From: a virus
Taxonomy: Duplodnaviria > Caudoviricetes
Direction: 5' to 3' (one strand)
DNA length: 64,000 nucleotides
IMG/VR virus record: IMGVR_UViG_3300020577_010124
Location: 106,563 to 170,562 of that record
Part shown: piece by piece, positions 1-41,662 of the stretch
Numbering within the stretch: the stretch's first letter is position 1
How the letters are laid out: each line of letters opens with the position of its first letter
The notes under the pieces: generated by a model
The model's input: only the letters and a program-made list of their open reading frames with translations
Told to the model about the DNA's origin: nothing
Databases searched by the model: none
Position numbers and translations under genes: made by a program

Positions 1-516
1 TGGAAGAGAGTTGTTGCAATTGATAGCGCTGTAAATGTAATAAGTTCTCCTGACGCAATCCTCGCAGTTGCCGATGATGGACAGTCTTATTATTCTACAG
101 ATGGTTTTACTTGGACAAGAGTAGGAGTAATAAACGATAAGATCGTAAATAAGATAAAGAAGTATCGCTCTAATATACTCTTTGCAACAAACGAGGGGTT
201 GTATCAGGACGGAGGCTCGTTCTATACTGGTCATCTTTCATTGCAGCTTTTGAATGTTTTTAGCGATATACAGAAAGCTGCGCTTCTAGAAGTAAATGAT
301 GTTGATTCAAGCGTAACAAAGGCCGTTATTGGTCTTTCTGATGGTCGATACGTTGTATACGGAGAGAACTTTGTAGCTCAACCAAATTCTAAGCTTCCTA
401 CGATTCACAAAGTTCTTATTGTAGACGATGAAATATGGCTGTTTGGATACAATCAGTTTAGAATAACCTCAGAAACATTTGTCAGAAAACTTGCTTCAGG
501 TTTTATAGTTACCTAA
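1..516 (+). CDS. C-terminal part of a BNR/Asp-box beta-propeller-like protein (putative virion protein), 5' truncated by window
   Basis: Frame 1 is open from base 1 (WKRVVAIDS...), upstream of the tracked 199 start; Asp-box-like YYSTDGFTW and propeller-like ILFATNEGLY. Confidence 0.6.
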   Translation, partial: WKRVVAIDSAVNVISSPDAILAVADDGQSYYSTDGFTWTRVGVINDKIVNKIKKYRSNILFATNEGLYQDGGSFYTGHLSLQLLNVFSDIQKAALLEVNDVDSSVTKAVIGLSDGRYVVYGENFVAQPNSKLPTIHKVLIVDDEIWLFGYNQFRITSETFVRKLASGFIVT

Positions 517-517
517 T

Positions 518-3500
518 ATGGCGTTCAAAGGCAAAAAAACAGGCGGAAAAGGACAAGTTATAGCCGTTGGTCATGATTTTAATGACCTAGCTCCAACTCC
601 ATCTCCTATCCCAACACCCCCAGCCCCTCCTACTCCTATAATCAATAGTTTTGGCGTAAACAACGCTAACCTTGCTTATGGAGGAGGCTCTGTTGTTCTA
701 ACATGGTCAACTTCAAATGTTACTACGGTTAGCATTGATAACGGAGTTGGAACGGTTTCTGTAAATAGTAGCGCTATTGTAAATGTAACTGAAAGTACAA
801 CGTTCAATCTTTCTGCAACAGGACCAGGCGGAACAGCTTATGCAAGCGTAAGCGTATCTGTTGCTCCGCCACCACCTCTTCCTACTGTTACGTCTTTTAG
901 CGCTTCTCAAACAACCCTATCCGCTTCTGGCGGTTCTGTTACTCTAACATGGACTTCTAGTAATGCGACTAGCGCAACTATGGATCAAAGCGTTGGAGCA
1001 GTTGCGGTTAATGGAAGTACCGTTGTTTCTGTAACATCAACTAAGACATTCACTCTAACTGTTAGTAACGTAACAGGCTCAACGCAAGCGACCGTTACGA
1101 TTACAGTATTGCCTGCTGTTCCAGCAATTACGAGCTTTACTGCTTTGCCAGCAACCTTGCCATTTGGAGGAGGTTCTGTTACTCTAACATGGACAACCTC
1201 AAATGTATCAAGTGTTAGTATAGATCAAGGAGTCGGTTCTGTTGTTGTTAATGGCAGTACAAGCATAAGCATAACGGATAGCACGACTTTCAATCTAACT
1301 GCAACGGGGCCAGGTGGAACGGTTTATGCAAGCGCAAGCGTAACAGTGAACTCTGTTCCGCCTCCACCTCCATTGCCAACTATTTCTAGTTTCACTGCTA
1401 CTCCTTCTACATTTGCAGCAGGCGGTGGAACTACTACTTTTAACTGGACTTCTAGCAATGCAACTAGCGCAAGCATAGATCATAGTGTTGGAAGTGTTTC
1501 AGTTAATGGAAGCACTACAGCCAGCGTAACAACAACGACTACTTATACGCTAACTGTTACAAATATAACAGGATCGACACAAGCTAGTGTTACAGTTACC
1601 GTATCTCCGCCCATACCGTCTATTACTTCTTTTACTGCTTTGCCTTCGACGCTTCCGTTTGGAGGAGGAACGGTAACTCTAACATGGACAACTTCAAACA
1701 TAACTTCTGTTACTATTGATAACGGAGTTGGTTCTGTAGCAACAAACGGCAATACTACTAAAGCTATAACGACAAGTACGACTTTCAATCTAACTGCGAC
1801 AGGTCCAGGTGGAACGGTGTTTGCAAGCGCGAGCGTTACTGTTTCTCCTCCACCACCTCTTCCTGTTGCTACGAGCTTTACGGCAACGCCTTCTACTTTA
1901 GCATTTGGTGGTGGAAATGTAACATTGGCATGGACTTCAACAAATGCGACAAGCGCAAGTATAGATCAGGGAGTTGGTAGTGTAGCAGTTAATAGTAGTA
2001 CGGTTGTAAATACAACGACTTCTAGAACATATACGCTAACCGTTAGCAATGTAACAGGATCGACTACTCGAAGCACAAGCGTTGTTGTTTCTCCTCCATT
2101 GCCTCTTATCAATAGTTTTACTGCAAATCCAACAAGTCTCGGATTTGGAGGCGGAAACGTAACGTTATCGTGGTCAACTTCTAATGCAGTAAATGTTAGC
2201 ATCAATAATGGAATAGGAACAGTTGCAGCAAGCGGCTCGATGGTTGTAAATATAACAACATCTACAGGCTACATACTAACAGCGACAGGAGCAGGAACAG
2301 GTATTGATAATACAATAACTAGGTCTGTCTCGATAACCGTTGCAAGCATACCAGCTTTTACTCCATATGCTGATGTTAATTTGCCTGCCCTAGAAGCAGA
2401 TAGGTTTTGTTTCTTCTTAGAAACTATGCACTTTGGTCTTTCAAATGCATGGTATCATACTTTTGTTATTGGAGACAATGTTGGATTTAATAGTCAGTTT
2501 CCAGATCTAAACCATATGGTTTGGAAGACGAAGATGATTGCTCCAGAAATTAGAATAAACACTTATAGCTGGGGCTATGCGGTTGGAGATCCAGGAACGG
2601 CATGGCGAGATGAAGTTTTGTTTGTAAAGCAAAAGTTTGAAGAAGCAAACTGCCCGTTTGAAAGATATACACTCAACTGTTATCCATTTATGCAGGGGCC
2701 AGGAGGCTTCCAAGGAAATCCAAAGAATACTTATCCTCTTGCTGATCATCCTGATGATTTGTTGCCTTCTGACGGTAGAGCAGCAGGCGGCGCTCAAGAC
2801 GGTAACTTCTTAGGAGCAACTAACCAAGTAACTCCTTATAGAATTAATGCGATAAACGCTTTTAGAAATACCTTTATTACCGATTTTCCTATTATACGTC
2901 AACAGTTTGATTTGGCAGGGCTTACAGGTCCAAACGCTCCTAGACTAGAAGCGATTGTAAGTACACAAGAGCATTTTGGTAGAAACTCTGATTTTGCTCC
3001 TGATACTCCAAATGTTCCAACTGTTATTTGGACTAATCCTGATAGTGTTGACTTTAATAGACAAGGCTGGGTAACAAGGAGTCTTGCTAGTCCTCTTAGT
3101 AATAGTAACCTATTTGATGGTTCACAGACTTTTACTAATTTCTGTAATACCGTAACTCTTAGAAATGGAGCGCCCGTTCCTCCTCCTCGCTGGGATAGAT
3201 GGCAGGGTCGAGGTGGGGCGATGGCGGAATTTGAAGGCGTAGATCAGTTTATCTTTATTACGCCTTATCGAGAAGCATTCTGGGCTGCAACTACACATGC
3301 ATTTTATAAGGGTTATGTAGAGCCATTCTTTATGGCGTTTGATTCCGCATTCCCCAATCTCAAACATTATGCCTATCAAGTGTATGGAACAGGCTCATCT
3401 CTTGGCGGAATAACAATATTGCCAGGCGGAGATCCCGTATATACAAAGACTCAAGGAACTTTCCCTTATCGTTTGCGAGGACATGGAATAGACTGGTATG

Positions 3501-13000: not shown

Positions 13001-13778
13001 TCGCGGCGAAAGCATACTAAAAGTAGGCGATAGCGTTTACGCAACTATTCGAGCAAATGACGGAACCCTATTCAGCGAAGTAGTTCGTTCTCAAGCTCTT
13101 AGTGTTATAGAGGCTCCTCCGTTTATCTCTAACGTTATAGTAAAGGGAAAGAGAAATGACGGTTCGCTTCAAGATACTGTAACAACTGCTACAAGAGCAT
13201 TTGCTAGCTTTGCTTTCTTCCAAGACGGAACAGGAACAACCAAGTCGCAGATCATCTGGTTTGTCAATGGTATTGAGTTCAAGAGAGGAAACCTCAATGA
13301 AATCGTTGGAGGTATTTCCAACAACGAAATTATTGTTGGAGAAATCAAGAACAACATTCTTGGTATAACTTTGGGCAATACTATTGAGGTTCAGATACTT
13401 CCAGTTTCAGGTTCTATTATTGGAAATCCAGTAACTAGTTCTCCTATCTCTGTAGAGAATGATCCTCCTTCTGTAAGAAATGTAGCAGTCAGCCCAAGTC
13501 CAACAGCTTCGTCGTCGTCAGCATTGCAGCTAACGTATGTCTACGTTGATGTAGAATCTCAACAACAAGGCAGTACGCAGAACGACCAGAGTTCCGTCAA
13601 GTGGTATCGAGCCGCAAGGGGTTCAAGCGAGTTTGTAGAGGTTAGTTCTTTGCAAAATCAGAAGATTGTCCCTGCGGTGAATACCTCTTCGGGCGAGATG
13701 TGGAAAGCCGAAGTAATTCCATTCGACGGAATTAGCGTTGGCACAACTGTAGTAAGCAATATCATAACGATTATTTGA
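4038..13778 (+). CDS. 3246-aa multidomain protein: interrupted vWA, FN3-like, LamG/ConA-like, six-blade Kelch, Ig-like; putative virion/baseplate adhesin
   Basis: MIDAS IVMDQSGS; LamG TMMAWIYP...QWNHVAVT; Kelch GG motifs QLYAIGG, YIYVFGG, KVYIIGG, FIHVLGG, IHYFLGG, YVYVGGG; distal vWA half LYDAL...NTDNEEN...ISNETGG. Confidence 0.7.
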   Translation: MILTKASVFLRIVGNPSSLVSFVVPEEGFVSFDAANFSKLEQGDPYVVFDVVADDYYGSGYLSVGYKRLEYLWPTITYPITAEKTGKYNLFIRVKTSGEFFNFSLLINGVNLLDKIVTTPQNQWTWISLPLVIADKKKFDLSIIPKTEGCLIDSFHISVNDTLPDVIEYQNSFLTVHFRMYEIDSDYQPNISLPIYGYKTSIEDILDDNWYNFSLETLPAYISKTFNLHYAATLFVSGSSESLYIMWDYAQDNGFTLDPYLQTCSLVLDSDTKTWSIDCEKKFALRLYSSRDAIDENACKAIVPASALTTKTVKTFSTNTSPVFVNTKAVPTIENEEKVQLSLPDRIVSIVMDQSGSQTWNDSSGVRHELARRMVDKLNATYPGDLKYNLVNFQSTPIKINFFAVTENDNLNTSDAGAAASEFFEDQESGYAGVRIVRKQGSYPTGPLDGDIVTEGFLERAFSDGLEEGQEYYYAAYTFNSSGVFSEGTFIKATPRERILPHGVGNFTSRVIIGTGVRRDENTIGLWHFNEGIDQTIYDFSDTSFTLTSSDDFIWLNFSDVPSGTSGVRFNGTATRFVGTDSNGDFVKSHYTMMAWIYPFDFNSKRTIVSRESSSTSAVGFRFGINTNKTLFFTLDDSTIASSSALLTANQWNHVAVTVDVSGNVASFYINGYFAGSGTLAQGANHSVAAMNLYIGGRQSSFFGKMTELSIHDSLRSAAYIAEAAVQPETSTDKLLDNGDRLVLLTYVVSDDFNYPGGTVRILRKESVGPAVFDYATSSSGSSPQLVFKGFGAGPSHENDGDVVYETSASSGSFTIALPYDYVLDRTYNYRIYSSNVLGNFSSNSDSPTIPIKIPNFKTKAARNAAISMPLIAPVENATLTIGNHKNYITWDAVTDENAEQVLVYWSDSGFPIISNDQGVDAGAILVFSGKPSDTYVVDRNIDNQIVSYYAIVVADKYGFYSQPVFVSGVPVSNAFEGNIPLLTISNLGYQIVNENALSLSWDAPVKFQKDIEAWFDQRVALYAQITDEFGAPIADNSQISFTATASVGSAQLAEDVFGETISGQALVPDAKSCFILSSSSIGNGFIRGVFRMTSDLDILSAINQLSADVRVSYSIPDRDNPGSNVFEFTSLPVHIEMDNPFSMEMLNIGDNNGFFGEGTSSGRGSKRRRRGSGAAPHVGSAATSAGGDTVKVLCKRTVPLDDQSFISSGGLEFDPDKFKEFPGCWIRRTRPFVSRVVILYRGEAISNAPDCDVAVFEASDPQCDRDDSSSNPCSQSGGGASSSPPEFVPGFSSRRSRSVQPPATSLPFRTGLQLLNDGTTKLVSYVDIPLKAPRTPQAIMLFAKTGYNGFFARKKMYVVFDNILRIETTIEPPESNCIDVAEQQAKVYLIDPDSTDVENPRKLAVPDSQIVRWELRKGTSGKDRPFYSTDNVPTGPGVFSYTRSGSARKVFFGPACGVTWLTYVPCPGNIILLPELYAIKASVIYDGLHAFEERPAIVYPPGDVRGFGSRFLMQMPNFVNDIYADGYDLAHVTIYHDPNIASGQIADCFKQCARDFNRPIFSLGNGQIVDIESGGDFEILYGDSLQVTFDEALDEYVITNASQEIGFAQIPLAQSGNRTDFYIRINKFLGRPQPVKPNDNQDQDPLSSTNQCSCIEVPPGLSSKTDLKIITGKTSIMFNGQTRFLSGGGDLKNGVPPTTIALREPLDISIVDIRRNGESVEKILCDSLSVHEFIVEVKFKDKAVPNGTPVFLTVGGINPEKIVLFSDTIFTQKLNDPILNPEGNKRSFASFFVYPFSAQAAFSGQVQAETNYDKRGDVVRSMTACITIKYDPSEKKPEATVTPEGEISSVFSGSLDVYDTYTDTWSQKALMKYPRGCLTLDWSFDAYGEQLYAIGGLNGKSILSYNEMYDIANDIWHTKKQMRVARFYHMSVQDSGYIYVFGGIVADGSVLAISRSVERYDIVNDVWEDVASLPIFGENPYGVAMGACVKLDNKVYIIGGIRKIGPQGSIEAMNDRVLVFDLDTQTWSWSSVYEDLDLALFTRISPTAFADKNGGFIHVLGGAVAGERDADTGAQSLEFLTDTFNINISTFAVVQDDYLYDNLPKPRYRNGHAQIGDIHYFLGGTNGKSQVLNLFESVEETSPVFTEQRLENMPKAKTAFGSTSDSWRYVYVGGGLTSGRPEGFLQILAEANPGSIRLDGQQSATVNIELKNDVGEHPNKSIRVLVQGIVLFKNATANQDGSGGTNSQQQSANSAARDALIYPVVFSSNDFVINNGVGATIMLPRSEDILKKVDEIKRKLGIVDPVTGDNGQAEDNTLVINEGEIRNPYTIKVRITILDGFYYGQTVIDIKDNQDSSVSTTPVELPPPTETTTTVSTPSGPQTTTTTTFSGCKEASGSQFAPIANQGSQTPTTDGSNVVIDQGLQQSDNPIFDLNPSQAPQLDSPTVSYFSDIEWIPQVIISVDNGDYGSIIKNLNRMRNEIPFGASQLYDALSKTASLMLGEELDSFAKSIYVNTDNEENLSFVTVDTAIEDIQAVDGFAETPVLINNLSVVFPLTLSAQLARTDTENLDRISNETGGQSQTVIDASYIDEVLNNAIGRVTGSIGWGIYECIIDLGKNSIINTIAIECELYPNTEGNWKISTSEDGFNYSVYSDPFNVNKDIQLTNVVGRYLKFSITLLSGLSASIESEYDLTPTPGVPAITGILIDYNIPTESFIYMNSDVLDRSPQQVAIAVSANRPLLSEIDVGVTTSKSTNWSDYYSGSQPSVDRFGKIFVPIRYTQTQDHTLDESLENIDGFMWKTIYGRWDVTSQVTIKDEDNNIVDPDIYRLYPQEGMVIFNSKQTGSFSISVENAGRIKVGLRVLNSDSEQAVQINGLGYMYNTNVFLPPPLSQRPPTVTDFNITPSELTIYQKIGLTYRYFDINQLDEQLDKSEIKWFINGVEVEYLRNVRTWNDITNTEDPIWIYAFTFSSSDVPSGTTVEQYARSRGESILKVGDSVYATIRANDGTLFSEVVRSQALSVIEAPPFISNVIVKGKRNDGSLQDTVTTATRAFASFAFFQDGTGTTKSQIIWFVNGIEFKRGNLNEIVGGISNNEIIVGEIKNNILGITLGNTIEVQILPVSGSIIGNPVTSSPISVENDPPSVRNVAVSPSPTASSSSALQLTYVYVDVESQQQGSTQNDQSSVKWYRAARGSSEFVEVSSLQNQKIVPAVNTSSGEMWKAEVIPFDGISVGTTVVSNIITII

Positions 13779-27170: not shown

Positions 27171-27173
27171 CAT

Positions 27174-28739
27174 ATGGCTATAAACGATCTTGACTCTCAA
27201 GAAAAACTATTACATCTTCTTATCAACAATGAAGGATTGATTCCTGAGTTTGTGACAGGACAGTTTGGACCTGATTACTTCGAAGATAAGCACAGGCCAA
27301 TGATCTATGGAATAGAAGAATGTCATCAAGCAGGTGAGAAATTTACAGATAGCTATTATCTAGATTTTATTGCTAGAAGCGTAGCGAATGGCGACTATAG
27401 AAAATGGACAGGAAGTGAAGTCGTAAGTTCTAAGTTCGCTCAACAAACTGAAAATCGAAACTATCAACTTCTCGCTAATCTAGACAAAGTTGATCCTGCG
27501 GACTTCCCATTGGTTTGCCGTAAGGTTCGAGAACATTACATAAAGAAACAAGCAACCAAGATACTTGAAAAGTTTAATACCAAACAAAACAAAGATTTTA
27601 TTGCAGCAACTCAAGAGCTTGCTGACAATATGACGGTTTTGATTTCTAGCGCTGCTGATAACAGCAATGCTACTTGGTCCAATGTTGACGAATACGGTGA
27701 CGACTGGTATAGAGAGCTAGAGGACGAGAGTAAGAATCCGAAGAAGGTTCTCAATACAGGAATCAAGCCATTTGACGAGACAATGCCGAACGGACTGGAC
27801 ATTGGCTCTTTAACTCTCATTGTTGCGGATGTTGGTGGTTTCAAATCAGCAACCATGATTAACATGGCGTTGAATGTTTGCAAACAAAGCAACGAGGATG
27901 TTCTATACGTTTCTCTTGAAATGCCTAAGAAGCGTTTGATGCAGAGACTGATATCCAGAGAAGCCGAGGTTGATTCAAAGAAGCTTGGACAACCGCATCT
28001 TCTTACTGAAGACGATAAAGCCAAAATCAAAAAGGCTATGGAAGACTTCAGGATTATCAAGTCCAAGTTTGCCATACTTGACGCTCAAGAAAGAATGACC
28101 GTATCCAAGATACGAGCAGAACTTGAAAAGCGCAGACATTTCTTCAGACCAAGAGTTGTTGTTATTGACTATATCTCGATTCTTAGTCCTGAGCCTTGGT
28201 ATCAAAAGCTAGCAGAGCATAGCTGGTACGGCCAGATGTGCAAAGACCTTCGTTCTCTTGGTAGAAAGATGGGCTTTGCTGTTCTATCCGCCGTTCAGCT
28301 TAATCGAGAGGCTATCAAATCTCTTCGTAATCAAAAAGAAGGTAAGCAGTCTGTTGGCTCTGACGCTCTTAGGGGTTCTCATGACTTTTCAGCAGACGCA
28401 GATAACATCTTTGTTCAAGTTCCTCATCCTGAGCAAATGAAAGAGAAGATGTATTTATTCTGCGTAAAGTCTAGATATGGTTCTCCTATGTTTGGTCCGC
28501 ACAACAATCAATCTAAGGCAACGCTGGACGTTTATCCGAGCATTGGTAAGATAACAGCATATGTTGACGCTACATGGTCGGTTGAGAACGATCCTATTGC
28601 CTCTGTTCTAATGAAGAAAGGGGACGCAATTCCAGATCCAGCTTTGGACTTGGACTTTGATACGACTCCTCCGCCTGCTCCAAATAAGCCAAAACCTAAA
28701 CCAAAGCAAAAGAATGAAATTGACGATCTTGGATTCTAA
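27174..28739 (+). CDS. dnaB: Replicative DNA helicase, DnaB family
   Basis: VADVGGFKS, YVSLEM, VVIDYI, SAVQLNR, LRGS...DAD, KSRYG. Confidence 0.85.
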   Translation: MAINDLDSQEKLLHLLINNEGLIPEFVTGQFGPDYFEDKHRPMIYGIEECHQAGEKFTDSYYLDFIARSVANGDYRKWTGSEVVSSKFAQQTENRNYQLLANLDKVDPADFPLVCRKVREHYIKKQATKILEKFNTKQNKDFIAATQELADNMTVLISSAADNSNATWSNVDEYGDDWYRELEDESKNPKKVLNTGIKPFDETMPNGLDIGSLTLIVADVGGFKSATMINMALNVCKQSNEDVLYVSLEMPKKRLMQRLISREAEVDSKKLGQPHLLTEDDKAKIKKAMEDFRIIKSKFAILDAQERMTVSKIRAELEKRRHFFRPRVVVIDYISILSPEPWYQKLAEHSWYGQMCKDLRSLGRKMGFAVLSAVQLNREAIKSLRNQKEGKQSVGSDALRGSHDFSADADNIFVQVPHPEQMKEKMYLFCVKSRYGSPMFGPHNNQSKATLDVYPSIGKITAYVDATWSVENDPIASVLMKKGDAIPDPALDLDFDTTPPPAPNKPKPKPKQKNEIDDLGF

Positions 28740-33391: not shown

Positions 33392-33672
33392 TGCCACTAT
33401 ATGAGTATGAAGTTCTTGATAATCAAGGCAAGCCAACTGGCGAAGTAGTCGAGTTCTTGCAGAAAATGTCAGACGCTAAATATGAAAAACATCCTGAAGA
33501 CGGAAGACCATTACGATATACTGTTTCAACTCTTGGCATGGTTGACGACGGCAGACCTGCTTGGGAACGATGTACTGACGTTCGAGATCATATACGCAGC
33601 GCAAAGCCCAAGTATGTAAGTGATACTAAAAAAGGTATTCGAGAAAGATACGATCCTAATAAGCACGGATGA
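33391..33672 (+). CDS. FmdB-like zinc-ribbon-fold protein lacking the Zn cysteines
   Basis: MPLYEYE...EFLQKMSD...HPEDGRPL. Confidence 0.6.
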   Translation: MPLYEYEVLDNQGKPTGEVVEFLQKMSDAKYEKHPEDGRPLRYTVSTLGMVDDGRPAWERCTDVRDHIRSAKPKYVSDTKKGIRERYDPNKHG

Positions 33673-34019
33673 GATACGTCAGGAAACAAATCGTTGTCAA
33701 AGTTTTGGCGGACGAGATTATAGAAGATCTCTCTGTTGTAAAACAGCTTCTTGAAACATTTCAACGTTCTCGAACGGACGCTCATATTAGTTATCGCAAA
33801 GATCAATTTGAAACAGCGACTGTTCATGATAGAGTCAGAATAACGGCTGTTCATGAAAACAGTTTTGACCTGACGGTTATCAATCAAACTCATACAATGA
33901 ATGTCAAGAAGATTCCAATTGCTGACGTTGATTTTATTTCAACGACGGTTTCTCCAAATGAAATCTTTGTCAAGAAAAGCGGCATCGTTGAAAAAGGCGA
34001 CACGCTGGATTTGGCGTGA
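33669..34019 (+). CDS. Hypothetical protein
   Basis: 116-aa ORF with ATGA overlap. Confidence 0.6.
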   Translation: MRYVRKQIVVKVLADEIIEDLSVVKQLLETFQRSRTDAHISYRKDQFETATVHDRVRITAVHENSFDLTVINQTHTMNVKKIPIADVDFISTTVSPNEIFVKKSGIVEKGDTLDLA

Positions 34020-34066
34020 GTTGTGGGTTGCTGTCTGAAAAAGCCTCTAACGCCGAAAATCTGAGC

Positions 34067-35467
34067 ATGAAGATAACCAACAACGCAGATTTTGTACACT
34101 TACATAACCACTCCGAATATTCTCAGTTTGACGGTCTTAACAAAGTCTCGAACTTTGCCAAGTCAGCTAAAGAAATGGGCTTTAAGGCTCTTGCTTTGAC
34201 TGACCACGGCAATGTTGGCGGCGCTATCAAGTTCATGCAGTCTTGTTGGAATAAGGATATCAAGAACTTTGATATCAAACCCATAGTTGGATGCGAGTTC
34301 TACCTGTCAAAAGACAGGCATATTCATTTCTCTGAGCGCAAAGAAGGCTCGAAGATCATCAAAGGTCAGACCGACGAGAAGAAAGGCAATCGTCATCTTG
34401 TTCTTATCGCAAAGAACTGGAAGGGTTGGCAGAATCTTGCTGCTCTCTCTCAACTGAGTTGGACCGAAGGTTTTTATCACAATCCTCGTATTGATTTACC
34501 CTTGCTAGCAAAGCATTCAGAAGGGCTTATATGCAATTCCGCCTGTCTTAGTAGCGTTGTCAACGCAAACCTTCTTCATGATCGTTTTGACGCTGCTAGA
34601 GCCGCCGTTGGAATTTTCAAGGATATCTTCAAAGAAGACTTTCATCTTGAGGTTATGTATCACGGCATTGACGCTGAGGCGATGATTATTCCAGACATTA
34701 TCAAGCTTGGCAAGGAAATGAATGTTCCAATCATCGCAACGAATGATTGTCATTACTGCTCTAAAGAACAGGGACTATCTCAAGAGTTGTTGATGTGCAT
34801 GAGTACAAGCAAGTGCTTGCATGATCCAAAGCATCTCAGGTTCCCATTCCATGAGTTCTATCTAAAGTCGGCAGCAGAGATGTCTCAAATCTTTGGGTCG
34901 CATCCTGAAGCTCTGCTTAATACTGTCATGGTTGCAGATAAAGTAGATTCAAAGGATATCTATGACAATATGATTTCGGGTATTCGTTTGCCAAGATATA
35001 GAATTCCCGCAGGTTTCAACTCTCCCTTTGAGTATATGGAGCATTTGGCTTGGGAAGGAATGAAGAAGCATAATTGGACAGGTAGCGCTCCTCATGTTGA
35101 AAGACTAAAGAGAGAGCTTGCTGACGTAAAGGTTGCTTGGGATAATAACAAGTACGACTTTGCTACTTATTTCCTTATTGTTCGAGACTACATTCAAGAA
35201 GCAAATAATCGAGGCATCCTTACAGGTTGCGGTAGAGGTTCAGGCTTTGCAAGCGTTCTATTGAGAGTCATAGGCATTACTTATGGTCCAGATCCTTTGC
35301 TGTTTGATCTGATTTGGGAACGTTTCCTTGGATTCGATGATAAGTATTTCTTGCAAGAAAGCGACTTCTTTGGAGAAGCTGTTGCCGAGAAGGTTGCCGA
35401 TTCTAATGACGATCTATTCGAAGACAGAGACGTTTCTGACGACCTGGGCGGCGTAGATAGATATTGA
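34067..35467 (+). CDS. dnaE: DNA polymerase III alpha, N-terminal half (PHP domain + start of palm)
   Basis: HLHNHSEYS..DG, ALTDHG, GCEFY, PRID, ATNDCHY, YFLIV.D, GRGS, WERFL then stop after an acidic tail. Confidence 0.9.
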   Translation: MKITNNADFVHLHNHSEYSQFDGLNKVSNFAKSAKEMGFKALALTDHGNVGGAIKFMQSCWNKDIKNFDIKPIVGCEFYLSKDRHIHFSERKEGSKIIKGQTDEKKGNRHLVLIAKNWKGWQNLAALSQLSWTEGFYHNPRIDLPLLAKHSEGLICNSACLSSVVNANLLHDRFDAARAAVGIFKDIFKEDFHLEVMYHGIDAEAMIIPDIIKLGKEMNVPIIATNDCHYCSKEQGLSQELLMCMSTSKCLHDPKHLRFPFHEFYLKSAAEMSQIFGSHPEALLNTVMVADKVDSKDIYDNMISGIRLPRYRIPAGFNSPFEYMEHLAWEGMKKHNWTGSAPHVERLKRELADVKVAWDNNKYDFATYFLIVRDYIQEANNRGILTGCGRGSGFASVLLRVIGITYGPDPLLFDLIWERFLGFDDKYFLQESDFFGEAVAEKVADSNDDLFEDRDVSDDLGGVDRY

Positions 35468-35468
35468 T

Positions 35469-36320
35469 ATGGCAGATACGCTCATAAAAAGAGTAGGCGG
35501 AAAGGTGAAGATCAGAGAGTGGATCAAGTCCAATCTCCCTCATCACCAAATCTATTGCGAGCCTTTTGGCGGTAGCTTTGCTGTTGGCTTTATCATGCCA
35601 ACACCTAATCTTACGTCTTATAGGTTGGTTCTAAACGATAGCGATAAGCATGTATGGAACTTGTTTCGAGTTTTGAGGGACTATAGACAAGAGTTTTTGG
35701 AGAAGATTGCTGCTAGTCCTTATAGCAGAGAAGACTTTGATCGATCTGTAGAGTACATTCGTTCTAAAAGAGATTTTGAGAAAGAGAATCCTGTTGACTG
35801 GGCGAGAATGTATATCATTTACAATCGACAGTCCATGATGGGAAAAGAAGACGGGACATGGGCTATCGCTCGGCAAGGTGAAAACTTCTGTCTTACTTGG
35901 GCCTCTATTCCGTCTCTTATCCGAGAAGTAGCAGATTTCTTCAAGAACGTTTTTGTAGAACGAATGGACTATAAGGAATGCATAGCCAAATGGGACAGTC
36001 CTGAAACTCTTTTTTATCTAGACCCTCCATACGAGGGAGTTGAGAAAGATTTTTATGAAGTCAATAAGAAAGACGGATTTGATCATAAAGGAATGGCCGA
36101 CCTCCTGAAAACCATTAAGGGAAGCTTTGCTGTATCTTACTATGACAGCAAGTATATTCGAGATCTTTATCCTGTTAGCGAAGGCTTCGTAATACATGAA
36201 AAGTCTGTTCTTAAACATATGCAGACTACCAAGAAGAAAGATTCCGTAACAGAGTTGCTTATCGTTCGAGAGAATAGTTGGGCAAAGCAGAATAGTAAAG
36301 AACGTTTTTGTTTTGAGTAA
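35469..36320 (+). CDS. Dam-like (D12) DNA adenine methyltransferase
   Basis: VGGK, YCEPFGGS, FYLDPPY, VSY. Confidence 0.9.
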   Translation: MADTLIKRVGGKVKIREWIKSNLPHHQIYCEPFGGSFAVGFIMPTPNLTSYRLVLNDSDKHVWNLFRVLRDYRQEFLEKIAASPYSREDFDRSVEYIRSKRDFEKENPVDWARMYIIYNRQSMMGKEDGTWAIARQGENFCLTWASIPSLIREVADFFKNVFVERMDYKECIAKWDSPETLFYLDPPYEGVEKDFYEVNKKDGFDHKGMADLLKTIKGSFAVSYYDSKYIRDLYPVSEGFVIHEKSVLKHMQTTKKKDSVTELLIVRENSWAKQNSKERFCFE

Positions 36321-36325
36321 ACACT

Positions 36326-36574
36326 ATGGCATATCACGTTAGTCTGATTAGAAAAGGCGAGTATGGTTGTATTTCTAAGATCCAAGAAGAGCTTGACGAG
36401 CTTAAGGATGCAACCTTGCAGAAAAACAAGATAATGGCTTTGATTGAGCTTTCCGATATGATCGGAGCTATCGAAGGCTTCTTGCAAAGAGAATATCCTT
36501 TTATTTCATTAGAAGACCTCAAGAAGATGTCTGACGCAACTCGTTCAGCATTTATGGATGGAACAAGAAAATGA
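36326..36574 (+). CDS. MazG/HisE-like all-alpha NTP pyrophosphohydrolase
   Basis: KIQEELDEL...IELSD ExxE/ExxD pattern. Confidence 0.6.
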   Translation: MAYHVSLIRKGEYGCISKIQEELDELKDATLQKNKIMALIELSDMIGAIEGFLQREYPFISLEDLKKMSDATRSAFMDGTRK

Positions 36575-37173
36575 AATGGTTTACGGAGCATAATGATCTT
36601 AGAGTTATGGCCGACGCTAGAGACTACTATCTCTATACGGAGAAGTATCGTCCTATTGAGGCTCCTTGGATTGTTAGTAAGAAAGCCATAATGATTACGG
36701 CTCCTGAAGAATGCGAACCATTTGTTCAGAATGAGTCTCTTGTTGCTTCGGGCGAGCAATCATTTATGCAGATGATTTTGGATGGGCAACTTAAACGAGG
36801 AGCGTACTTTACGATTACCCCTTGTTATAGACCAGCAGATGCTGCGAGAAATGACGGATTGCATCTTGCTCAGTTTACAAAGCTTGAACTTATTGATTTC
36901 TATGAGAATGTTGAACCTACTCATGAAGATCTTAAGCGAATGATTGTAGGGGCGAAAAAGTTCATGGAAGATGCTAGAGGGGAAATGCTAGATATCGTGC
37001 GAGTTCCCGATTCAGAACATAGAGAATGTTTTACTTTTGAAAATTACGATATCATGACTGCGGGTCCAGGTGAAATAGAACTTGGTTCATATGGAATCCG
37101 ACGACATCCCGATATTGGGTATTGGGTGTACGGAACGGGCGCTGCTCTTCCAAGATTAATGCATGGAGTCTAA
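36571..37173 (+). CDS. Minimal class II aminoacyl-tRNA-synthetase-like catalytic domain (SerRS-like)
   Basis: LVASGEQ, motif 2 TPCYR...HLAQFTKLEL, IELGSYG, motif 3 GTGAALPRL; no tRNA-binding domain. Confidence 0.65.
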   Translation: MKWFTEHNDLRVMADARDYYLYTEKYRPIEAPWIVSKKAIMITAPEECEPFVQNESLVASGEQSFMQMILDGQLKRGAYFTITPCYRPADAARNDGLHLAQFTKLELIDFYENVEPTHEDLKRMIVGAKKFMEDARGEMLDIVRVPDSEHRECFTFENYDIMTAGPGEIELGSYGIRRHPDIGYWVYGTGAALPRLMHGV

Positions 37174-37178
37174 CGATA

Positions 37179-39164
37179 ATGCCAACTCTACAAGAAATCA
37201 AACAAGAACTTTTGGGCTTGGTTAAAGATCCGAGCCTTCTTCCTCTGTGCGAAGCTGAAATTAAGAAGATGGAATCGACCGAGGGATTGGACGATAAACT
37301 CAATCTTGAGAAGTTCTACAGTCTCTATAAGATGTCCAAGACTCGAAGCGACAATCATAGAAATGTTGTCAACTCATGGCTTGCTTATGCGACTGGAATG
37401 GTTACAAAGAAACCAGACGAAGGTTCAACCTTCTTCCCCAAGCGTCGTGCGTTTGCTAGAAAGAGTCTGCCCGACGTTGATAGCGACTTTGACTATGAGC
37501 GTAGAGGCGAAATCTATCAGTATTTGATTGACACGTTTGGACGAGAATACGTTGGAAATATTGGAACGTATTCAGGTCTAAAAACCAAGTCTTATGTTCG
37601 TCGCGCAATAAAGGCGATAGATCCAGAGAAGACATTCTTCAAAGGATTTGACTTTTGGAAGACAGAAACAAATGCATTAGGTGCTGAGATATTGGATTCA
37701 CTTCCGCCTCAGTATGGAGCGAAGCTCAAGGTAAAGGATGATCAGGGTAATGAACATATTATTGATACTGTTGCTGACGCTGCTAAATACTGTAAGAAAT
37801 TCTCTTATTACATTACTAAGTATCCCTCTCTTCTTCAACACTCTCATAGTATTGAAGGACTACTATCCACTTTTGGAGTCCATGCTGCTGGTATTGTCAT
37901 ATCAAGCGAGCCTCTTGGCAATATAGCGCCTCTTCGTCAGAGCAAGATTGCGGATAGCGCAACCGAAGAGGGTCCAAAGTATGCTTATGCAACTCAGTTT
38001 GAGTATAACGATCTAGAATTCCTAGGTCTAATCAAGTTCGATATTCTTGCTCTTAGTACGCTCTCTGTCATCTATCGTTGCATGAACATGATTGAGCAGA
38101 ACTATGGAATCAAGGTCAACATCTACGACCTGCCTCTTGACGACAAGAAAACCTACGATCTTTACAAGAGCGGCAAACTAACGGGCGTATTCCAATGCGA
38201 AGAATACGGAATGCAGAAGACAATGGTAAACATGGGAGTTGACTCTCTTCATGATATCATGGCTGGAATCGCTTTGTATCGTCCTGGTCCTATGGACTAT
38301 ATTGAAACCTATTGCGCTCGAAAGCATGGCGTAGAGCCGATTGACTATTTCCATTCTTCGCTAAAGCCCTTGCTTGAGCAGCATCTAAAGAAGACATACG
38401 GACTTCCTGTTTATCAAGAACAGATTATGCAAGTATGTAATGCTGTTGCGGGACTTTCCATTCCTGAAGGTTATGTAGTTATCAAGGCTATTGGTAAGAA
38501 AAAGCCTGAGTTGCTACAGAAGTATCGTACTCGTTTTGTTACTGGCGCAAAAGAAACAAACGGTATCGAGCCAAAGGTTGCGGAAGGCTATTGGGATAAG
38601 GTTATTACGCCCTTCGCCGACTACGGATTCAATAAGGCGCATGCTTGTTGCTATGCATACAACTCATATGCGACGGCGTATTTGAAGGCCAATTATCCTG
38701 AAGAGTTTGTTGCTTCCTACTTGAACGTTGAAGTTATTCGAGCCAACTACGACAAGATTGCTACTCTAGAAAAGATGGCAGACGAAATGAACATTACGAT
38801 TCTTCCTCGTCACATCAATACTTGTAAGCTTGAATACACAATCGCCAAGAGAGCGGACGCTACGAATGGTGTTCCAGGGTCGGAAATCATGCCTTCTATC
38901 CGTTGTAAGGGTTTGAGTTTTTCCGCGGCAGAAGAAATTGTCAAGCATCAACCATATGCGAGCTTGAAAGAGTTTGCAGAGTTTACGGATACAAAGCTTG
39001 TTGATATGAGAGCATTGGAAGCTTTGATTGAGGCAGGTTTCTTCAAGCCCAAGCAAGGTAGATCACGACCTGCTCAGGATATTCTTGACGAGTTTGAGAT
39101 GATGAGAGAAGACCTTAAGAAGCTTCGCAAGCGAGGTATCGAAGGCGGAAATATGTTTGAGTGA
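37179..39164 (+). CDS. dnaE: DNA polymerase III alpha, C-terminal (catalytic) half
   Basis: SLPDVDSDF, GVHAAGIVI, LIKFDILAL, GVFQCE, ALYRPGP, VYQEQIMQ, YGFNKAHA, LKANYP; ends after HhH region. Confidence 0.9.
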   Translation: MPTLQEIKQELLGLVKDPSLLPLCEAEIKKMESTEGLDDKLNLEKFYSLYKMSKTRSDNHRNVVNSWLAYATGMVTKKPDEGSTFFPKRRAFARKSLPDVDSDFDYERRGEIYQYLIDTFGREYVGNIGTYSGLKTKSYVRRAIKAIDPEKTFFKGFDFWKTETNALGAEILDSLPPQYGAKLKVKDDQGNEHIIDTVADAAKYCKKFSYYITKYPSLLQHSHSIEGLLSTFGVHAAGIVISSEPLGNIAPLRQSKIADSATEEGPKYAYATQFEYNDLEFLGLIKFDILALSTLSVIYRCMNMIEQNYGIKVNIYDLPLDDKKTYDLYKSGKLTGVFQCEEYGMQKTMVNMGVDSLHDIMAGIALYRPGPMDYIETYCARKHGVEPIDYFHSSLKPLLEQHLKKTYGLPVYQEQIMQVCNAVAGLSIPEGYVVIKAIGKKKPELLQKYRTRFVTGAKETNGIEPKVAEGYWDKVITPFADYGFNKAHACCYAYNSYATAYLKANYPEEFVASYLNVEVIRANYDKIATLEKMADEMNITILPRHINTCKLEYTIAKRADATNGVPGSEIMPSIRCKGLSFSAAEEIVKHQPYASLKEFAEFTDTKLVDMRALEALIEAGFFKPKQGRSRPAQDILDEFEMMREDLKKLRKRGIEGGNMFE

Positions 39165-39223
39165 ACCAATAGCAATCTTTAGTGAGAACGACGATGAAGA
39201 AGTCAATAGCGAAAGGTAATCAA

Positions 39224-39544
39224 ATGAGCAATGAAGCAGAGACTCCAAAAATGAGAAAATCAATCGTCCGTAAGTCTATAACTCGCAAGTACAATACTGC
39301 AAAGTTTGAAACTATGGATATCGTAGTAGACCATTCCATCGAAGTAGAATGGGACACGATCGAAAATCTTAGAGCAAAGAGCGATAGCGTTACTACGCTT
39401 GTAGCCAATGATTTCGAGCAAACAGCTAAGAAAGTCTTCGAAGATTTCCGTCTAACTTCTACTCCTGCCTCTATGAATGAAGCGGGTCCAGCGAAGCGCG
39501 GACTTTCTGCGGAAGAAAAGAAAGACTTTGATAAGCTTAGTTGA
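39224..39544 (+). CDS. Hypothetical protein
   Basis: AAAGGT then ATG 39224. Confidence 0.6.
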   Translation: MSNEAETPKMRKSIVRKSITRKYNTAKFETMDIVVDHSIEVEWDTIENLRAKSDSVTTLVANDFEQTAKKVFEDFRLTSTPASMNEAGPAKRGLSAEEKKDFDKLS

Positions 39545-39567
39545 AATACAACAATAGGAAGTAGTAA

Positions 39568-40797
39568 ATGTCGCTATCCATAAGTGAGCAGTTGGACTCT
39601 ATATTTGATGTCCCTAAAAATGGCGCAAATATAAAAGAAGAAGATACTGATAACAACGATGCAGCTTATGCTGAAGTAGTTGCTACGCATGACAATGCGA
39701 GCTTTGATCAAAAAGTCAAGGCGCTAAGCGAGAAGCTGGCTAAAGACGTTCCCTCGTCGGATGTCCCTAACACTTCAACAGTGGAGGCTTCTTATGTTCA
39801 GCCAACCTTTGCCGCCCCAGAACAACCCAAACAATCTACCGAAGACGAGTTCCAAACGATACTCTCGCGGTCTGTTCAACCTAAACAGCCTATCGTCGCG
39901 CCAGTACAACCCTTGGTGCAAGAACCGATCTTTGATACTAAAGATACAAAGCGAGAAGAGCCTGCTAAGAACGATGACACGATACGGAATAACGACAAAC
40001 CAATTCCTGTCGCTTTGGAAGGAAACGCTGTGAATGATGATTCGGTATCCGAGTCAGTTTCGGACGGACCTAGCTCGCCAGTATACAACTTGCAAGTTAA
40101 CTCAGACGGTTGGTTGCTAACGGCTCCTGCTCCAATGTATAGTCACTTCTATACAGAGAAGGCAGCATTCATTCGCCATATCACCGTAAATGGTAAGCCT
40201 CTAGAAATAGATAAGTTGACGACTGAGCTTAGAAACTCAAGCGTTAGCACGAAAGTAGAGCTTACGGATCTGCCAGGAATGGCTGAACGTCTAACGAAGA
40301 TTCAGGACTTCCTTGATAGAGTTGTTCAAATCAAGGTTCAGGCAACCAGTCAATGCGCTGCAACAAAAAGAGGCGTTGAGTTGCTTCGAGGGGTTTTGGC
40401 TAAGGTTAGCTACGAAAAACCAGCCGCCCGTCAAGACGGAGTTATTTACGACCATATGCGAGACATTGAGATGTACGCATCAAGAGTCGAAAGCCTTGAG
40501 CAGAATGCTAAGGATATATACCACAACTTGTTGGAAGCGAAAGAAATCCTCAGCCGCAAGATATCTATTGCTATTGAGCTTGTAAAAGAGCAAAATAAGA
40601 CTGACGGATTGGAGAAGAGTTTCAATAATCTTCCCGATAGTTCAAAGAAAACTATGAGCGCTCCTATAGCTACATCTAGTAAGTTGGCGGGCGAAGGATA
40701 CGACAGGTTGGACGTACAAGAAGCTGTTGTGAAGGCAGCGGCTCCAAAGCAAGATCGGTCGATAAAAAAATCTGGACAATCTGATTGGATGGACTGA
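39568..40797 (+). CDS. Hypothetical protein (disordered N-terminus, coiled-coil C-terminus)
   Basis: 409-aa ORF, AGGA upstream. Confidence 0.7.
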   Translation: MSLSISEQLDSIFDVPKNGANIKEEDTDNNDAAYAEVVATHDNASFDQKVKALSEKLAKDVPSSDVPNTSTVEASYVQPTFAAPEQPKQSTEDEFQTILSRSVQPKQPIVAPVQPLVQEPIFDTKDTKREEPAKNDDTIRNNDKPIPVALEGNAVNDDSVSESVSDGPSSPVYNLQVNSDGWLLTAPAPMYSHFYTEKAAFIRHITVNGKPLEIDKLTTELRNSSVSTKVELTDLPGMAERLTKIQDFLDRVVQIKVQATSQCAATKRGVELLRGVLAKVSYEKPAARQDGVIYDHMRDIEMYASRVESLEQNAKDIYHNLLEAKEILSRKISIAIELVKEQNKTDGLEKSFNNLPDSSKKTMSAPIATSSKLAGEGYDRLDVQEAVVKAAAPKQDRSIKKSGQSDWMD

Positions 40798-40828: not shown

Positions 40829-40966
40829 TATGACGAATGAGTAACCCATACTTGCTTGTCATAGAGATTCTAGAGAGTACCGAGCGTTTCGAGACTTTCA
40901 AACAAAGACGTAGTATAAAAAGCTGAACTCAAGTTTTTAGAGTTCCCAGAGTTAAGGAGATTTCAC
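40829..40966 (+). promoter_or_regulatory. Structured 5' leader of SSB gene
   Basis: 15-bp imperfect hairpin 40829-40863; GAACTC/GAGTTC hairpin 40925-40945; repeated GAG..TTC units; AAGGAG SD. Confidence 0.45.
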
Positions 40967-41662
40967 ATGGGACAGTTGATTGATTGGGGTAGTGTAGAGC
41001 CACAAAAGCCAAGTAAGGGCGGAAGCGGTGGCGGCGGTAGCGACAAGTTCTTGAAGCTAGAGCCAGGTAAGACGTACCGAGTACGTCCAGTCGGAAAACC
41101 ATATGTTTTCCATGCTTACTATGTTGCTGCGGCGGACAATCCTAAGAAGTTCGCCAGAGCGGTAACGGAAGATCCAGCAAACTGCATAATTCGTCAGAAG
41201 TATAACGTTGAGCCAAGAATGCGTTACGCTGTCAATGTCATTGACCGCGCAGACGGCAAGCTCAAGGTTATGGAAGCGCCTCCATCTGTCTTTGATAAGA
41301 TCAAGCAATGGGCCAACGCTTCTGGGCAAAACCCAGGCACGAATACAGGCGCAGACTTCCAAATCAGCGTAGTCGTTCCTCCTAACGGAGATCGTAAGCG
41401 CACTGAGTATCCAACAACTCCAGTTGTTCAGACGCAGTTTACTGCTGAAGAGCGAGAGATGTTGAATAAGCAAGGTCTATTCAATCTTGAAGAGATCTAT
41501 GCTGCAACTCCTCAGTCAGAAATCGAAGCTAAGTTGTACCCAGGTACTTCTTCAGCAACGGTTACTGTAAAGACCGCTGCGCCGCAAGCTGCGGCTCCCG
41601 TTCAGAGCGTAGCTGCAACTGCTGTTGCATCTAAGGCTTCGAACGACGATCTAGGGTTCTAA
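40967..41662 (+). CDS. Single-stranded DNA-binding protein (gp32-like phage SSB)
   Basis: FLKL...YRVRPV, RYAVNVIDR.DGKLKVME, G.DF.I, TEY; Ala-rich linker and acidic-aromatic tail DDLGF. Confidence 0.7.
   Translation: MGQLIDWGSVEPQKPSKGGSGGGGSDKFLKLEPGKTYRVRPVGKPYVFHAYYVAAADNPKKFARAVTEDPANCIIRQKYNVEPRMRYAVNVIDRADGKLKVMEAPPSVFDKIKQWANASGQNPGTNTGADFQISVVVPPNGDRKRTEYPTTPVVQTQFTAEEREMLNKQGLFNLEEIYAATPQSEIEAKLYPGTSSATVTVKTAAPQAAAPVQSVAATAVASKASNDDLGF

Follow-up and report, generated by a model that had tools for sequence, protein, structure and literature searches.

The 64,000-nucleotide stretch of DNA analyzed here (the window) forms the final 64 kb of the 170.5-kb IMG/VR virus record IMGVR_UViG_3300020577_010124, from a giant freshwater phage; CheckV puts the completeness of the record at 34%, which implies a genome near 500 kb. 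Positions 34067-39164 are filled by five tightly packed genes on the + strand: dnaE-N (34067..35467), three cargo genes and dnaE-C (37179..39164). We propose, with a probability of about 0.84, that dnaE-N and dnaE-C encode the two subunits of a non-covalently assembled replicative polymerase of the C family (DnaE), and that this two-protein enzyme is ancestral to a clade of ~500-kb megaphages. In place of the single polypeptide of DnaE, the window holds two open reading frames (ORFs) with their own stop and start codons. An earlier note on this stretch had already described DnaE as two ORFs with three genes between them, and its coordinates and motifs, including WERFLGF, the tail behind it, the leader of the C-half and ARKSLPDVDSDF from 37455, all proved correct.

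Catalytic residues and the fit of the two halves

The N-half, a protein of 466 amino acids (aa), comprises a PHP domain and the first half of a Pol-beta-like palm (Pfam PF02811 and PF07733). For the PHP domain (34097..34663; PF02811, E 7.5e-42) there are nine metal-ligand positions, H13, H15, D22, H47, E77, H110, C160, D227 and H229, all of which are present in the window and invariant in A2, the 59-sequence N-half alignment that we used, together with the C-half alignment A3, to score conservation. DnaE1 enzymes have an intact PHP domain, and we take that of the window to be, presumably, a proofreading exonuclease. The palm portion matches PF07733 profile positions 1-97 and contains the GRGS nucleotide-binding loop (35231..35242; G389, R390, G391 and S392), which occurs in the N-half only and is invariant in A2. 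The final canonical element of the N-half is WERFLGF (35315..35335), the counterpart of E. coli FERFLNP around R390, in which W417, R419, F420, L421 and F423 are invariant.

The C-half (661 aa) consists of a leader, the second half of the palm, the thumb, the fingers and a helix-hairpin-helix (HhH) region, with Pfam matches to PF07733 (positions 68-260), PF17657 and PF14579. ARKSLPDVDSDF follows directly after the leader, starting at 37455. The catalytic aspartates of PDVDSD (37470..37487; D99 and D101, plus D103) and the KFD motif (38034..38042; K286 and the third catalytic carboxylate, D288) are invariant in A3, and we take K286 and D288 to correspond to K553 and D555 of the KFDFLGL motif of E. 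coli. The fingers domain (38058..38561) covers residues 294-461 (PF17657, E 3.3e-50) and the HhH DNA-binding region (38790..39050) residues 538-624 (PF14579, E 1.4e-08). Nothing was recognized after the HhH region, and no OB or tau-binding domain was detected in dnaE-C.

Apart from the single polypeptide, the hallmarks of the C family are found in this pair of genes: a PHP domain with nine ligands, a palm with its GS loop, DxD and third carboxylate, and fingers with HhH. The palm motifs are spread over two chains, GRGS lying in the N-half and D99, D101, D103, K286 and D288 in the C-half. Pfam matches and invariant motifs agree in placing the break inside the palm, between GRGS and the aspartate pair, where the earlier note had put it.

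We modelled each half separately with AlphaFold2 (AF2) and used VIA-align to compare the models with solved DnaE (2hnh, 5fkw, 5lew and 7pu7). Residues 7..428 of the N-half model match residues 4..397 of E. coli Pol III alpha (2hnh; Z 35.8, root-mean-square deviation 5.5, 379 residues aligned), and residues 3..428 match residues 7..418 of M. tuberculosis DnaE1 (5lew; Z 38.5). Residues 94..661 of the C-half model match E. coli 397..925 (5fkw_A; Z 25.8), and residues 95..658 match M. tuberculosis 417..965 (7pu7_A; Z 25.9). Z scores against solved DnaE range from 35.8 to 38.5 for the N-half and from 25.8 to 27.7 for the C-half. In these independently made models, the halves abut at canonical residue ~397 of the E. 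coli enzyme, in agreement with the canonical register in which the earlier note had joined them.

For prediction of the complex, we supplied the full N-half and residues 1-520 of the C-half, with a separate alignment for each. The pair scored an ipSAE of 0.89, against 0.09 for the best control; 58 of 80 solved complexes and 2 of 110 mismatched pairs attained that mark. At least 87% of the contacts were common to the runs, the partner confidence (predicted local distance difference test, pLDDT) was at least 85, and about 360 contacts were confident. The predicted interface takes in residues 384-395 (the GRGS loop) and 418-439 (ERFLGF and a DF remnant beyond it) of the N-half, and residues 30-64 and 86-94 of the leader and the DxD strand at 100-105 of the C-half. 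This joint folding of both chains, which the earlier note had put forward as a check on its proposal, supports binding of the halves rather than showing it. Together with the co-occurrence of the halves and the finding of no other replicative polymerase in complete relatives, both described below, it makes the non-covalent two-subunit enzyme the better of the two readings that the earlier note had left side by side.

After translation, the halves would dock along a surface that in ordinary DnaE lies within one chain. The N-half would bring the PHP domain, as presumed proofreading exonuclease, and the GRGS triphosphate-binding loop; the C-half would bring D99, D101, D288, K286, the thumb, the fingers and the HhH region. 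We infer that the active site is composite: because the catalytic motifs are divided between the two proteins, neither half should polymerise alone.

The leader and the tail at the break

The leader (37179..37454), 92 aa ending in ...FFPKRRAF, is a helical junction module that is not part of canonical DnaE. It is conserved in 61 homologues, and the family consensus from leader to DxD reads ...ELD.M...EGLD.K..L.KFY..WK...GK.G..N.INSWTAY.LGMT.KKP.G.FLP.RRAFAR.GFPDIDSDF. In the AF2 model of the C-half, which has an overall pLDDT of 87.5, leader helices span residues 4-13, 18-33, 42-53 and 67-71; mean pLDDT in 10-residue blocks is 71-92 through residue 90, and residues 90-93 fall below 50. The VIA-align alignments of the C-half model begin at residues 88-97, leaving the leader outside the superposition on solved DnaE structures. 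The leader is a conserved extra module rather than a simple linker.

Part of this module resembles the palm itself. SWLAYATGMVTKKP (37374..37415) reads as a degenerate copy of SLVAYALGIT.IDP, the helix behind GRGS in canonical DnaE, and lacks the GRGS loop; the leader consensus INSWTAYxLGMTxKKP aligns with canonical GSLVAYALGIT.IDP. When the leader profile was compared by hhalign with a profile of 23 canonical phage DnaE, that same register was returned (P 1e-5); a column-shuffle control attained the score in 1 of 200 shuffles. Over the stretch that runs from this helix to PDIDSDF, the C-half consensus can be aligned without a gap to the joined exteins of L061, a distant phage DnaE locus (here and below, L0xx denotes loci of relatives, P0xxx homologous proteins, G00x related genome records, X2 a contig from another study, and X3 a sequencing run). 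PF07733 profile positions 68-97 are, moreover, matched by both halves. Of the exact fusion proposed in the earlier note, then, the register stands; simple abutment does not, given the segment matched twice and the helix copy in the leader. In a look-up in the ESM Atlas, which we treat only as a lead, the nearest named clusters to the leader were short PF07733 proteins (score 0.89-0.90), probably fragments of the same family.

We infer that the leader most likely originated in a partial tandem duplication of a palm segment of roughly 100 codons, followed by complementary decay in which the N copy would have retained the strand before GRGS and the GRGS loop, and the C copy DxD. The clade-specific junction module at the break would then comprise the 92-aa helical leader and the first ~16 residues of the N-half tail, and would add to the interface.

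That tail (35336..35464) is 43 aa long, with 15 Asp or Glu residues, and consists of an F..x.DF element, a variable acidic linker and the sequence GGVDRY (35447-35464), which is the C-terminal end of dnaE-N. D433 and F434 of F..x.DF are invariant in A2, and we read the element as a probable decayed remnant of the DxDF strand. In the N-half folded alone by AF2, residues 432-466 have pLDDT below 50, and the acidic tail past residue ~439 is predicted to be disordered. The 120 best N-halves carry GGxDRY after an acidic linker in 85 cases, stop right after DF in 30 and have other acidic ends in 5. Complementary acidic and basic appendages, which the earlier note had imagined as the glue between the halves, find no support in these results: past residue ~439 the tail is predicted to be disordered and lies outside the confident contacts, and 30 of the 120 best N-halves and 8 of 28 split loci do without it. 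GGxDRY is absent from those 8 of the 28 split IMG/VR family loci and from all seven fused or short forms (0/7), which suggests, from the sequences, that GGVDRY is tied to the split state yet is not needed for splitting. The tail might serve to dock the N-half to the C-half or to a different protein of the replisome.

An acidic linker with a di-glycine end recalls the C-terminal extensions of ubiquitin-like precursors, a likeness that serves us as a lead only. It brings up the idea that the halves are joined covalently after translation with no classical intein, for example if the N-half were processed behind the di-glycine of GG-VDRY and its new end then ligated to the C-half or attached to it in ubiquitin-like fashion, or that the N-half is conjugated to a replisome partner in this way. 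The invariance of GGxDRY behind its disordered linker in 85 of the 120 best N-halves fits this idea, as does its absence from every fused and single-copy form. We nevertheless hold it to be quite improbable, since the N-halves and split loci that lack the motif (30/120 and 8/28) remain split, of three complete relatives a single one was found to have the E1 (ThiF) and JAB genes that conjugation might use, and intein hallmarks are missing: the tail starts with Asp, and the helical leader ends in ...RRAF followed by Ala. Among five related records searched for ubiquitin-like machinery, only one contained ThiF (E1) and Prok-JAB; both were absent from the complete relatives G002 and G004, each of which has GGVDRY. 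In G003 (complete, 488 kb), adjoining ThiF(E1)-like and Prok-JAB genes lie at C1:90423-92525. If true, a di-glycine-based covalent linkage would be a new way to join a split essential enzyme.

The end of the tail has a further likeness within the window. A DnaB-like helicase (27171-28739) and SSB (open frame 40919-41662; gene starts at 40967) both end in DDLGF, and in dnaE-N the sequence DDLGG stands directly ahead of VDRY. This likeness may be due to chance, the residue ahead of GG varying in relatives (L, M, F, A, P or Q).

We considered and rejected an intein at the break, and hold an intron there to be very improbable. There is no N-intein start, as the tail begins DDKYF (FDDK or FDS in the family) and not with Cys, Ser or Ala; at the other side, ...KRRAF|ARK lacks HN-Cys/Ser/Thr, and the leader is helical rather than the beta-rich fold of HINT. 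With no intein Pfam family matched in either half, a helical leader and a disordered tail, the absence of intein signatures reported in the earlier note was borne out, and the usual intein site, FADYGFNKAH, is likewise intact. For an intron, no Rfam family was matched at E<=1 in 33500-39700, and the interval is full of three conserved protein genes, which leaves formal room only for an RNA of an undescribed kind. The positive control for the intein hallmarks was L061, where they read ...LLWERFLGRHR|CVDPSTY... and ...FVLTHN|TSWPDIDSD.

The distant phage DnaE group of L061 (~27% identity) is fractured at the ERFL|PDxD loop too, and there by a genuine split intein. Its split-intein loci (L061:8935-13843, L078:2552-7403 and L068:9040-16224) have gaps of 0.8-3.1 kb, and continuous sisters exist (L071 and others). 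The loop thus tolerates interruption. Within the family of the window, inteins occur at other sites: a LAGLIDADG intein inside the PHP domain, and others at YGIL|C...HN|CYQEQ and after GFNKS. In some members the C-half is itself divided, in split-intein-like fashion, at ...VHN|CHAAGIVIS, giving DnaE genes in three pieces. Members with further inteins are P0017, P0154, P0164, P0175, P0230, P0163 and P0168, and L023, L028, L039 and L056.

Distribution, origin and genomic setting

A search for N-half homologues among proteins of 256-816 aa at E<=1e-10 found 780 stand-alone proteins. The 120 best of these are 429-601 aa long, share 52-79% identity and lie on contigs of up to 505 kb from marine (Tara), riverine, wastewater and other metagenomes; matching C-halves of ~650 aa are of comparable abundance. 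No close relative was found in the INPHARED phage collection, all matches being below 40% identity. We then fetched 78 IMG/VR loci by an N-half profile and located the halves by BLASTP, defining family membership as N-half identity of at least 46%. This criterion retained 35 of the 78 loci, two of them on contigs too short for the C-half, and both halves were present in all 33 family loci with enough flank.

A tree of 35 rows, made up of the IMG/VR family loci, L007, L009, L010 and the window, with the two short-contig loci dropped, was built from a concatenated core of 960 columns by a quick IQ-TREE search with Shimodaira-Hasegawa-like approximate likelihood ratio (SH-aLRT) support, and was rooted on canonical phage DnaE. 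All rows have both halves: 28 are split, five are fused with two copies of the palm segment, and two are single-copy. In the fused forms (L029, L030, L031, L036 and P0228/L009), one ORF carries the N-half palm segment as well as the leader, with ~120 residues between ERFL and PDxD. The short single-copy form in L033 and L034 reads ...LLWERFLAF-KKSEETG-KRVFARPGFPDIDTDF. Because it retains both the ERFLxF of the N-half and the KRxFARxGF element specific to the C-half, this short form looks like a deletion derivative of the long one.

The family forms one clade (SH-aLRT 100). Its basal branches are those of split forms; a single subclade, surrounded by split forms, takes in the fused and the short ones (supports 99, 95 and 100). 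On the evidence of this tree, a large clade of ~500-kb aquatic megaphages inherited the split from its ancestor, and the fused and single-copy forms, because they are nested inside split clades, are secondary. The split is an ancient, selected trait of the family and not a fresh disruption; the recently broken continuous gene that the earlier note had feared is, for practical purposes, refuted by the hundreds of stand-alone homologues and the many split loci with both halves.

Three relatives are 98-100% complete, with genomes of 488-499 kb, two of them with terminal repeats. In these three we found no match to family A (PolA) or family B (PolB) polymerases, and their only PF07733 matches are the two halves; PF00136 was found neither in them nor in the record of the window. 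Because of this, the split enzyme is the only recognisable replicase of the three complete relatives.

The spacing between dnaE-N and dnaE-C, counted from stop to start, varies from -8 nt (an overlap, in L010 and L021) through 11-14 nt (L007 and L018) up to ~3.2 kb, with varying cargo, so that relatives with the same break and other intervening genes, which the earlier note had proposed to look for, do exist. Such close or overlapping cistrons make recoding possible in principle, and could be taken to favor a joining of the halves at the level of RNA or translation, by trans- or cis-splicing of an unrecognised intron, ribosomal bypassing or frameshifting. This is very improbable. The halves of the window are separated by 1.7 kb with three conserved ORFs, the Rfam search of the interval was negative, the adjacent cistrons of L007 lie in different frames with their own start codon and a Shine-Dalgarno-like spacer, and both tail and leader show conservation at the protein level, as would not be expected of RNA that is excised. 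The earlier note's second reading, an unrecognised joining mechanism at the RNA or protein level, gained no support.

That the split should be an assembly artefact or a recently inactivated pseudogene is hardly credible. X2, a contig of 8470 nt from an independent study, covers 33500-38246 with zero differences to the window, and hundreds of independent assemblies have the same architecture with invariant catalytic residues; together these rule out the misassembly that the earlier note had named as a danger. The complete relatives, further, encode no other recognisable replicative polymerase. All that we found in favor of an artefact is one strain variant in X3, a wastewater run, that diverges just ahead of the dnaE-N stop: one contig tracks dnaE-N to 35460, 5 nt ahead of the stop codon (35465-35467), and rejoins the window at 36129, while a second contig of the same run is collinear with the window. 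This pair of contigs points to strain-level cargo variation over 35460-36129 that begins exactly at the end of dnaE-N.

Several points weigh against our reading of the pair or against its parts. The complex prediction may pass partly through the likeness of the halves to solved single-chain DnaE. The tree comes from a quick search, its only support values are SH-aLRT, and its outgroup branches are long. The duplication origin of the leader leans on a 14-column profile match (P 1e-5): compared with the N-half's own palm, the leader gave no BLASTP match and the expected register by hhalign at only E 0.22, the leader alone had no significant Pfam match, and its profile found no DnaE among PDB sequences. 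The C-half, finally, retains R89, R90 and R94 and a conserved G..N..NS loop (G59..N62..N65-S66) at the position of GRGS, upstream of DxD, and may therefore be weakly active when alone.

This last point leads to the view that the two proteins work apart, the C-half as a self-sufficient, PHP-less polymerase with a degenerate GS-like loop and the N-half as a PHP nuclease or pyrophosphatase that would at most dock to it. The leader does fold confidently without the N-half, and the C-half matches 301 Pseudomonas-phage records in the phage collection, a genus missing from the top N-half organisms, which suggests that PHP-less DnaE-like enzymes exist. We nonetheless consider separate functions unlikely. 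The N-half has an invariant GRGS and an invariant hydrophobic strand ahead of it, where the leader has hydrophilic residues; it also retains ~100 palm residues for which a free PHP enzyme would have no use and which fall in the predicted interface; and the halves always co-occur, lie adjacent or overlapping in many relatives, and both contribute to the natural fusions. We therefore retain the reading of dnaE-N and dnaE-C as two subunits of one polymerase.

The three genes between the halves encode a D12/Dam-type N6-adenine DNA methyltransferase (35469..36320; PF02086, E 2.3e-24; phrog_56), an 82-aa phrog_6408 protein (36326..36574; phrog_6408, E 1e-31) and a 200-aa stand-alone protein resembling class-II aminoacyl-tRNA synthetases (aaRS-like; 36571..37173; phrog_4806, 'histidyl tRNA synthetase', E 1.7e-30). 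The start of the third gene overlaps the second by ATGA, and the two (36326-37173) are translationally coupled. Methyltransferase orthologues (61-66% identity) hold the same gap in L012-L016 and L039, the 82-aa gene lies in the gap of L012, L013 and L015, and the aaRS-like gene is duplicated in L001 (6444-8014) and L012. Across the subclade of the window, the gap holds the methyltransferase, to which some members add a 170-190-aa gene, the 82-aa gene and either one aaRS-like gene or two. This content is common only to that subclade, other clades having unrelated cargo, and the three intervening genes are thus cargo that landed in a pre-existing intercistronic joint. The "three unrelated genes" of the earlier note are indeed present, as secondary cargo that varies between clades, some relatives having the two cistrons side by side or overlapping. 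Once two cistrons were in place, the joint between them would have become a landing site for such genes.

The methyltransferase starts 1 nt after the dnaE-N stop, and the last cargo gene ends 5 nt ahead of the dnaE-C start. Terminator-like sites are not enriched relative to shuffled sequence (5 found, 5.0 expected). Because the genes share a strand, are tightly packed and show no excess of terminator-like sites, dnaE-N to dnaE-C are likely co-transcribed.

Other features of the neighborhood may concern the replisome. The end of dnaE-C (39075-39161) has, family-wide, a basic stretch and a hydrophobic terminus, ...REDLKK.RK.G....(D/N)(M/I)F(E/G), which may be a clamp- or partner-binding peptide. 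Two genes of about 105-120 aa and 375-409 aa always lie 3' of dnaE-C, ahead of SSB and a UvsX/RecA-like gene (window 39182-39544 and 39568-40797; L007:9401-10888). Both window genes lack a PHROG match; they are candidates for accessory replisome subunits, the larger being of sliding-clamp size. The primase is, family-wide, likewise found in two genes, a stand-alone DnaG zinc-ribbon gene upstream of dnaE and a Toprim-domain gene downstream of the recombinase (L007:1-583 and 13047-13395; L010:3358-3885).

Comparison with known systems

To our knowledge, every description of a C-family polymerase, the replicase of bacteria, has it as one alpha chain or as a chain rejoined by a split intein. In the phages considered here, a whole clade of abundant, uncultured, ~500-kb aquatic viruses appears to replicate with a DnaE active site made of two proteins. 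The clade and its distant relatives offer a natural series: split with the tail, split without it and with overlapping cistrons, re-fused with two copies, re-fused with the module deleted, and interrupted by a split intein elsewhere. This series makes it testable how much of a Pol-beta-like palm must be contiguous. It also bears on how gene fission through a catalytic domain can be survived, apparently aided by a partial duplication that left both products foldable, and on how a new intercistronic joint turns into a landing site for cargo. In practice, annotation pipelines will call the two ORFs truncated or partial DnaE.

The enzyme of the window shares its domain order, catalytic residues and fold with canonical DnaE, as represented by E. 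coli Pol III alpha and M. tuberculosis DnaE1. It differs in consisting of two polypeptides, in having ~135 extra residues at the joint, and in that no OB/tau-binding C-terminal region was detected.

DnaE genes divided by split inteins are known from the cyanobacterial dnaE-n/dnaE-c and from marine 'fractured genes' (PMC2677866). Like those, the enzyme of the window is encoded in two pieces, with genes inserted between them as in the fractured loci (PMC2677866). Unlike those, it lacks HINT motifs, and its product is expected to stay two chains.

Another parallel is the minimal Pol III alpha that Iyer et al. (2021) described in group 2.2 T4-like jumbo phages, split into an NTP-binding and a Mg2+/template-binding subdomain (PMC7824862). 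There, too, two stand-alone proteins are predicted to reconstitute one enzyme. The minimal protein has no PHP or other DnaE domains, is encoded by distant genes and accompanies a family-B polymerase (PMC7824862); by contrast, the enzyme of the window has a complete PHP domain, fingers and HhH, its genes are neighbors, and no family A or B polymerase was found in the complete relatives. Weinheimer and Aylward noted PF07733 as the marker of the marine jumbo-phage cluster PGC_A, with no mention of a split (PMC9123017). In a limited full-text search of the literature, which is not proof of absence, we found no description of a PHP-containing, duplication-flanked, two-cistron DnaE.

The general arrangement has precedents among the genes-in-pieces of phages. 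In gp43A/gp43B of the T4-related Aeromonas phages 25 and 44RR, NrdA of phage Aeh1 and the topoisomerase genes 60/39 of T4, an essential replication enzyme is likewise encoded by two cistrons with no intein (PMC2988022). The split polymerase gp43A/43B of Aeromonas phage 25 co-purifies and polymerises, and the split NrdA of Aeh1 is functional (PMC2988022). As in those systems, variable or mobile DNA occupies the gap and the halves are expected to reassemble non-covalently (PMC2988022), and the mark of such genes, two conserved, always co-occurring cistrons with variable DNA in the gap, is found in this family as well. Unlike gp43A/gp43B, which belongs to family B, the window encodes a C-family DnaE in which the break runs through the catalytic palm, so that the active site would be composite. 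Beside the break lies a conserved junction module that includes a degenerate second copy of the neighboring palm helix, the cargo consists of ordinary genes with no evident homing endonuclease, and the split is ancestral to a very large clade rather than sporadic. Non-covalent split phage enzymes are already known; a widespread, PHP-containing, two-gene DnaE has so far gone unremarked.

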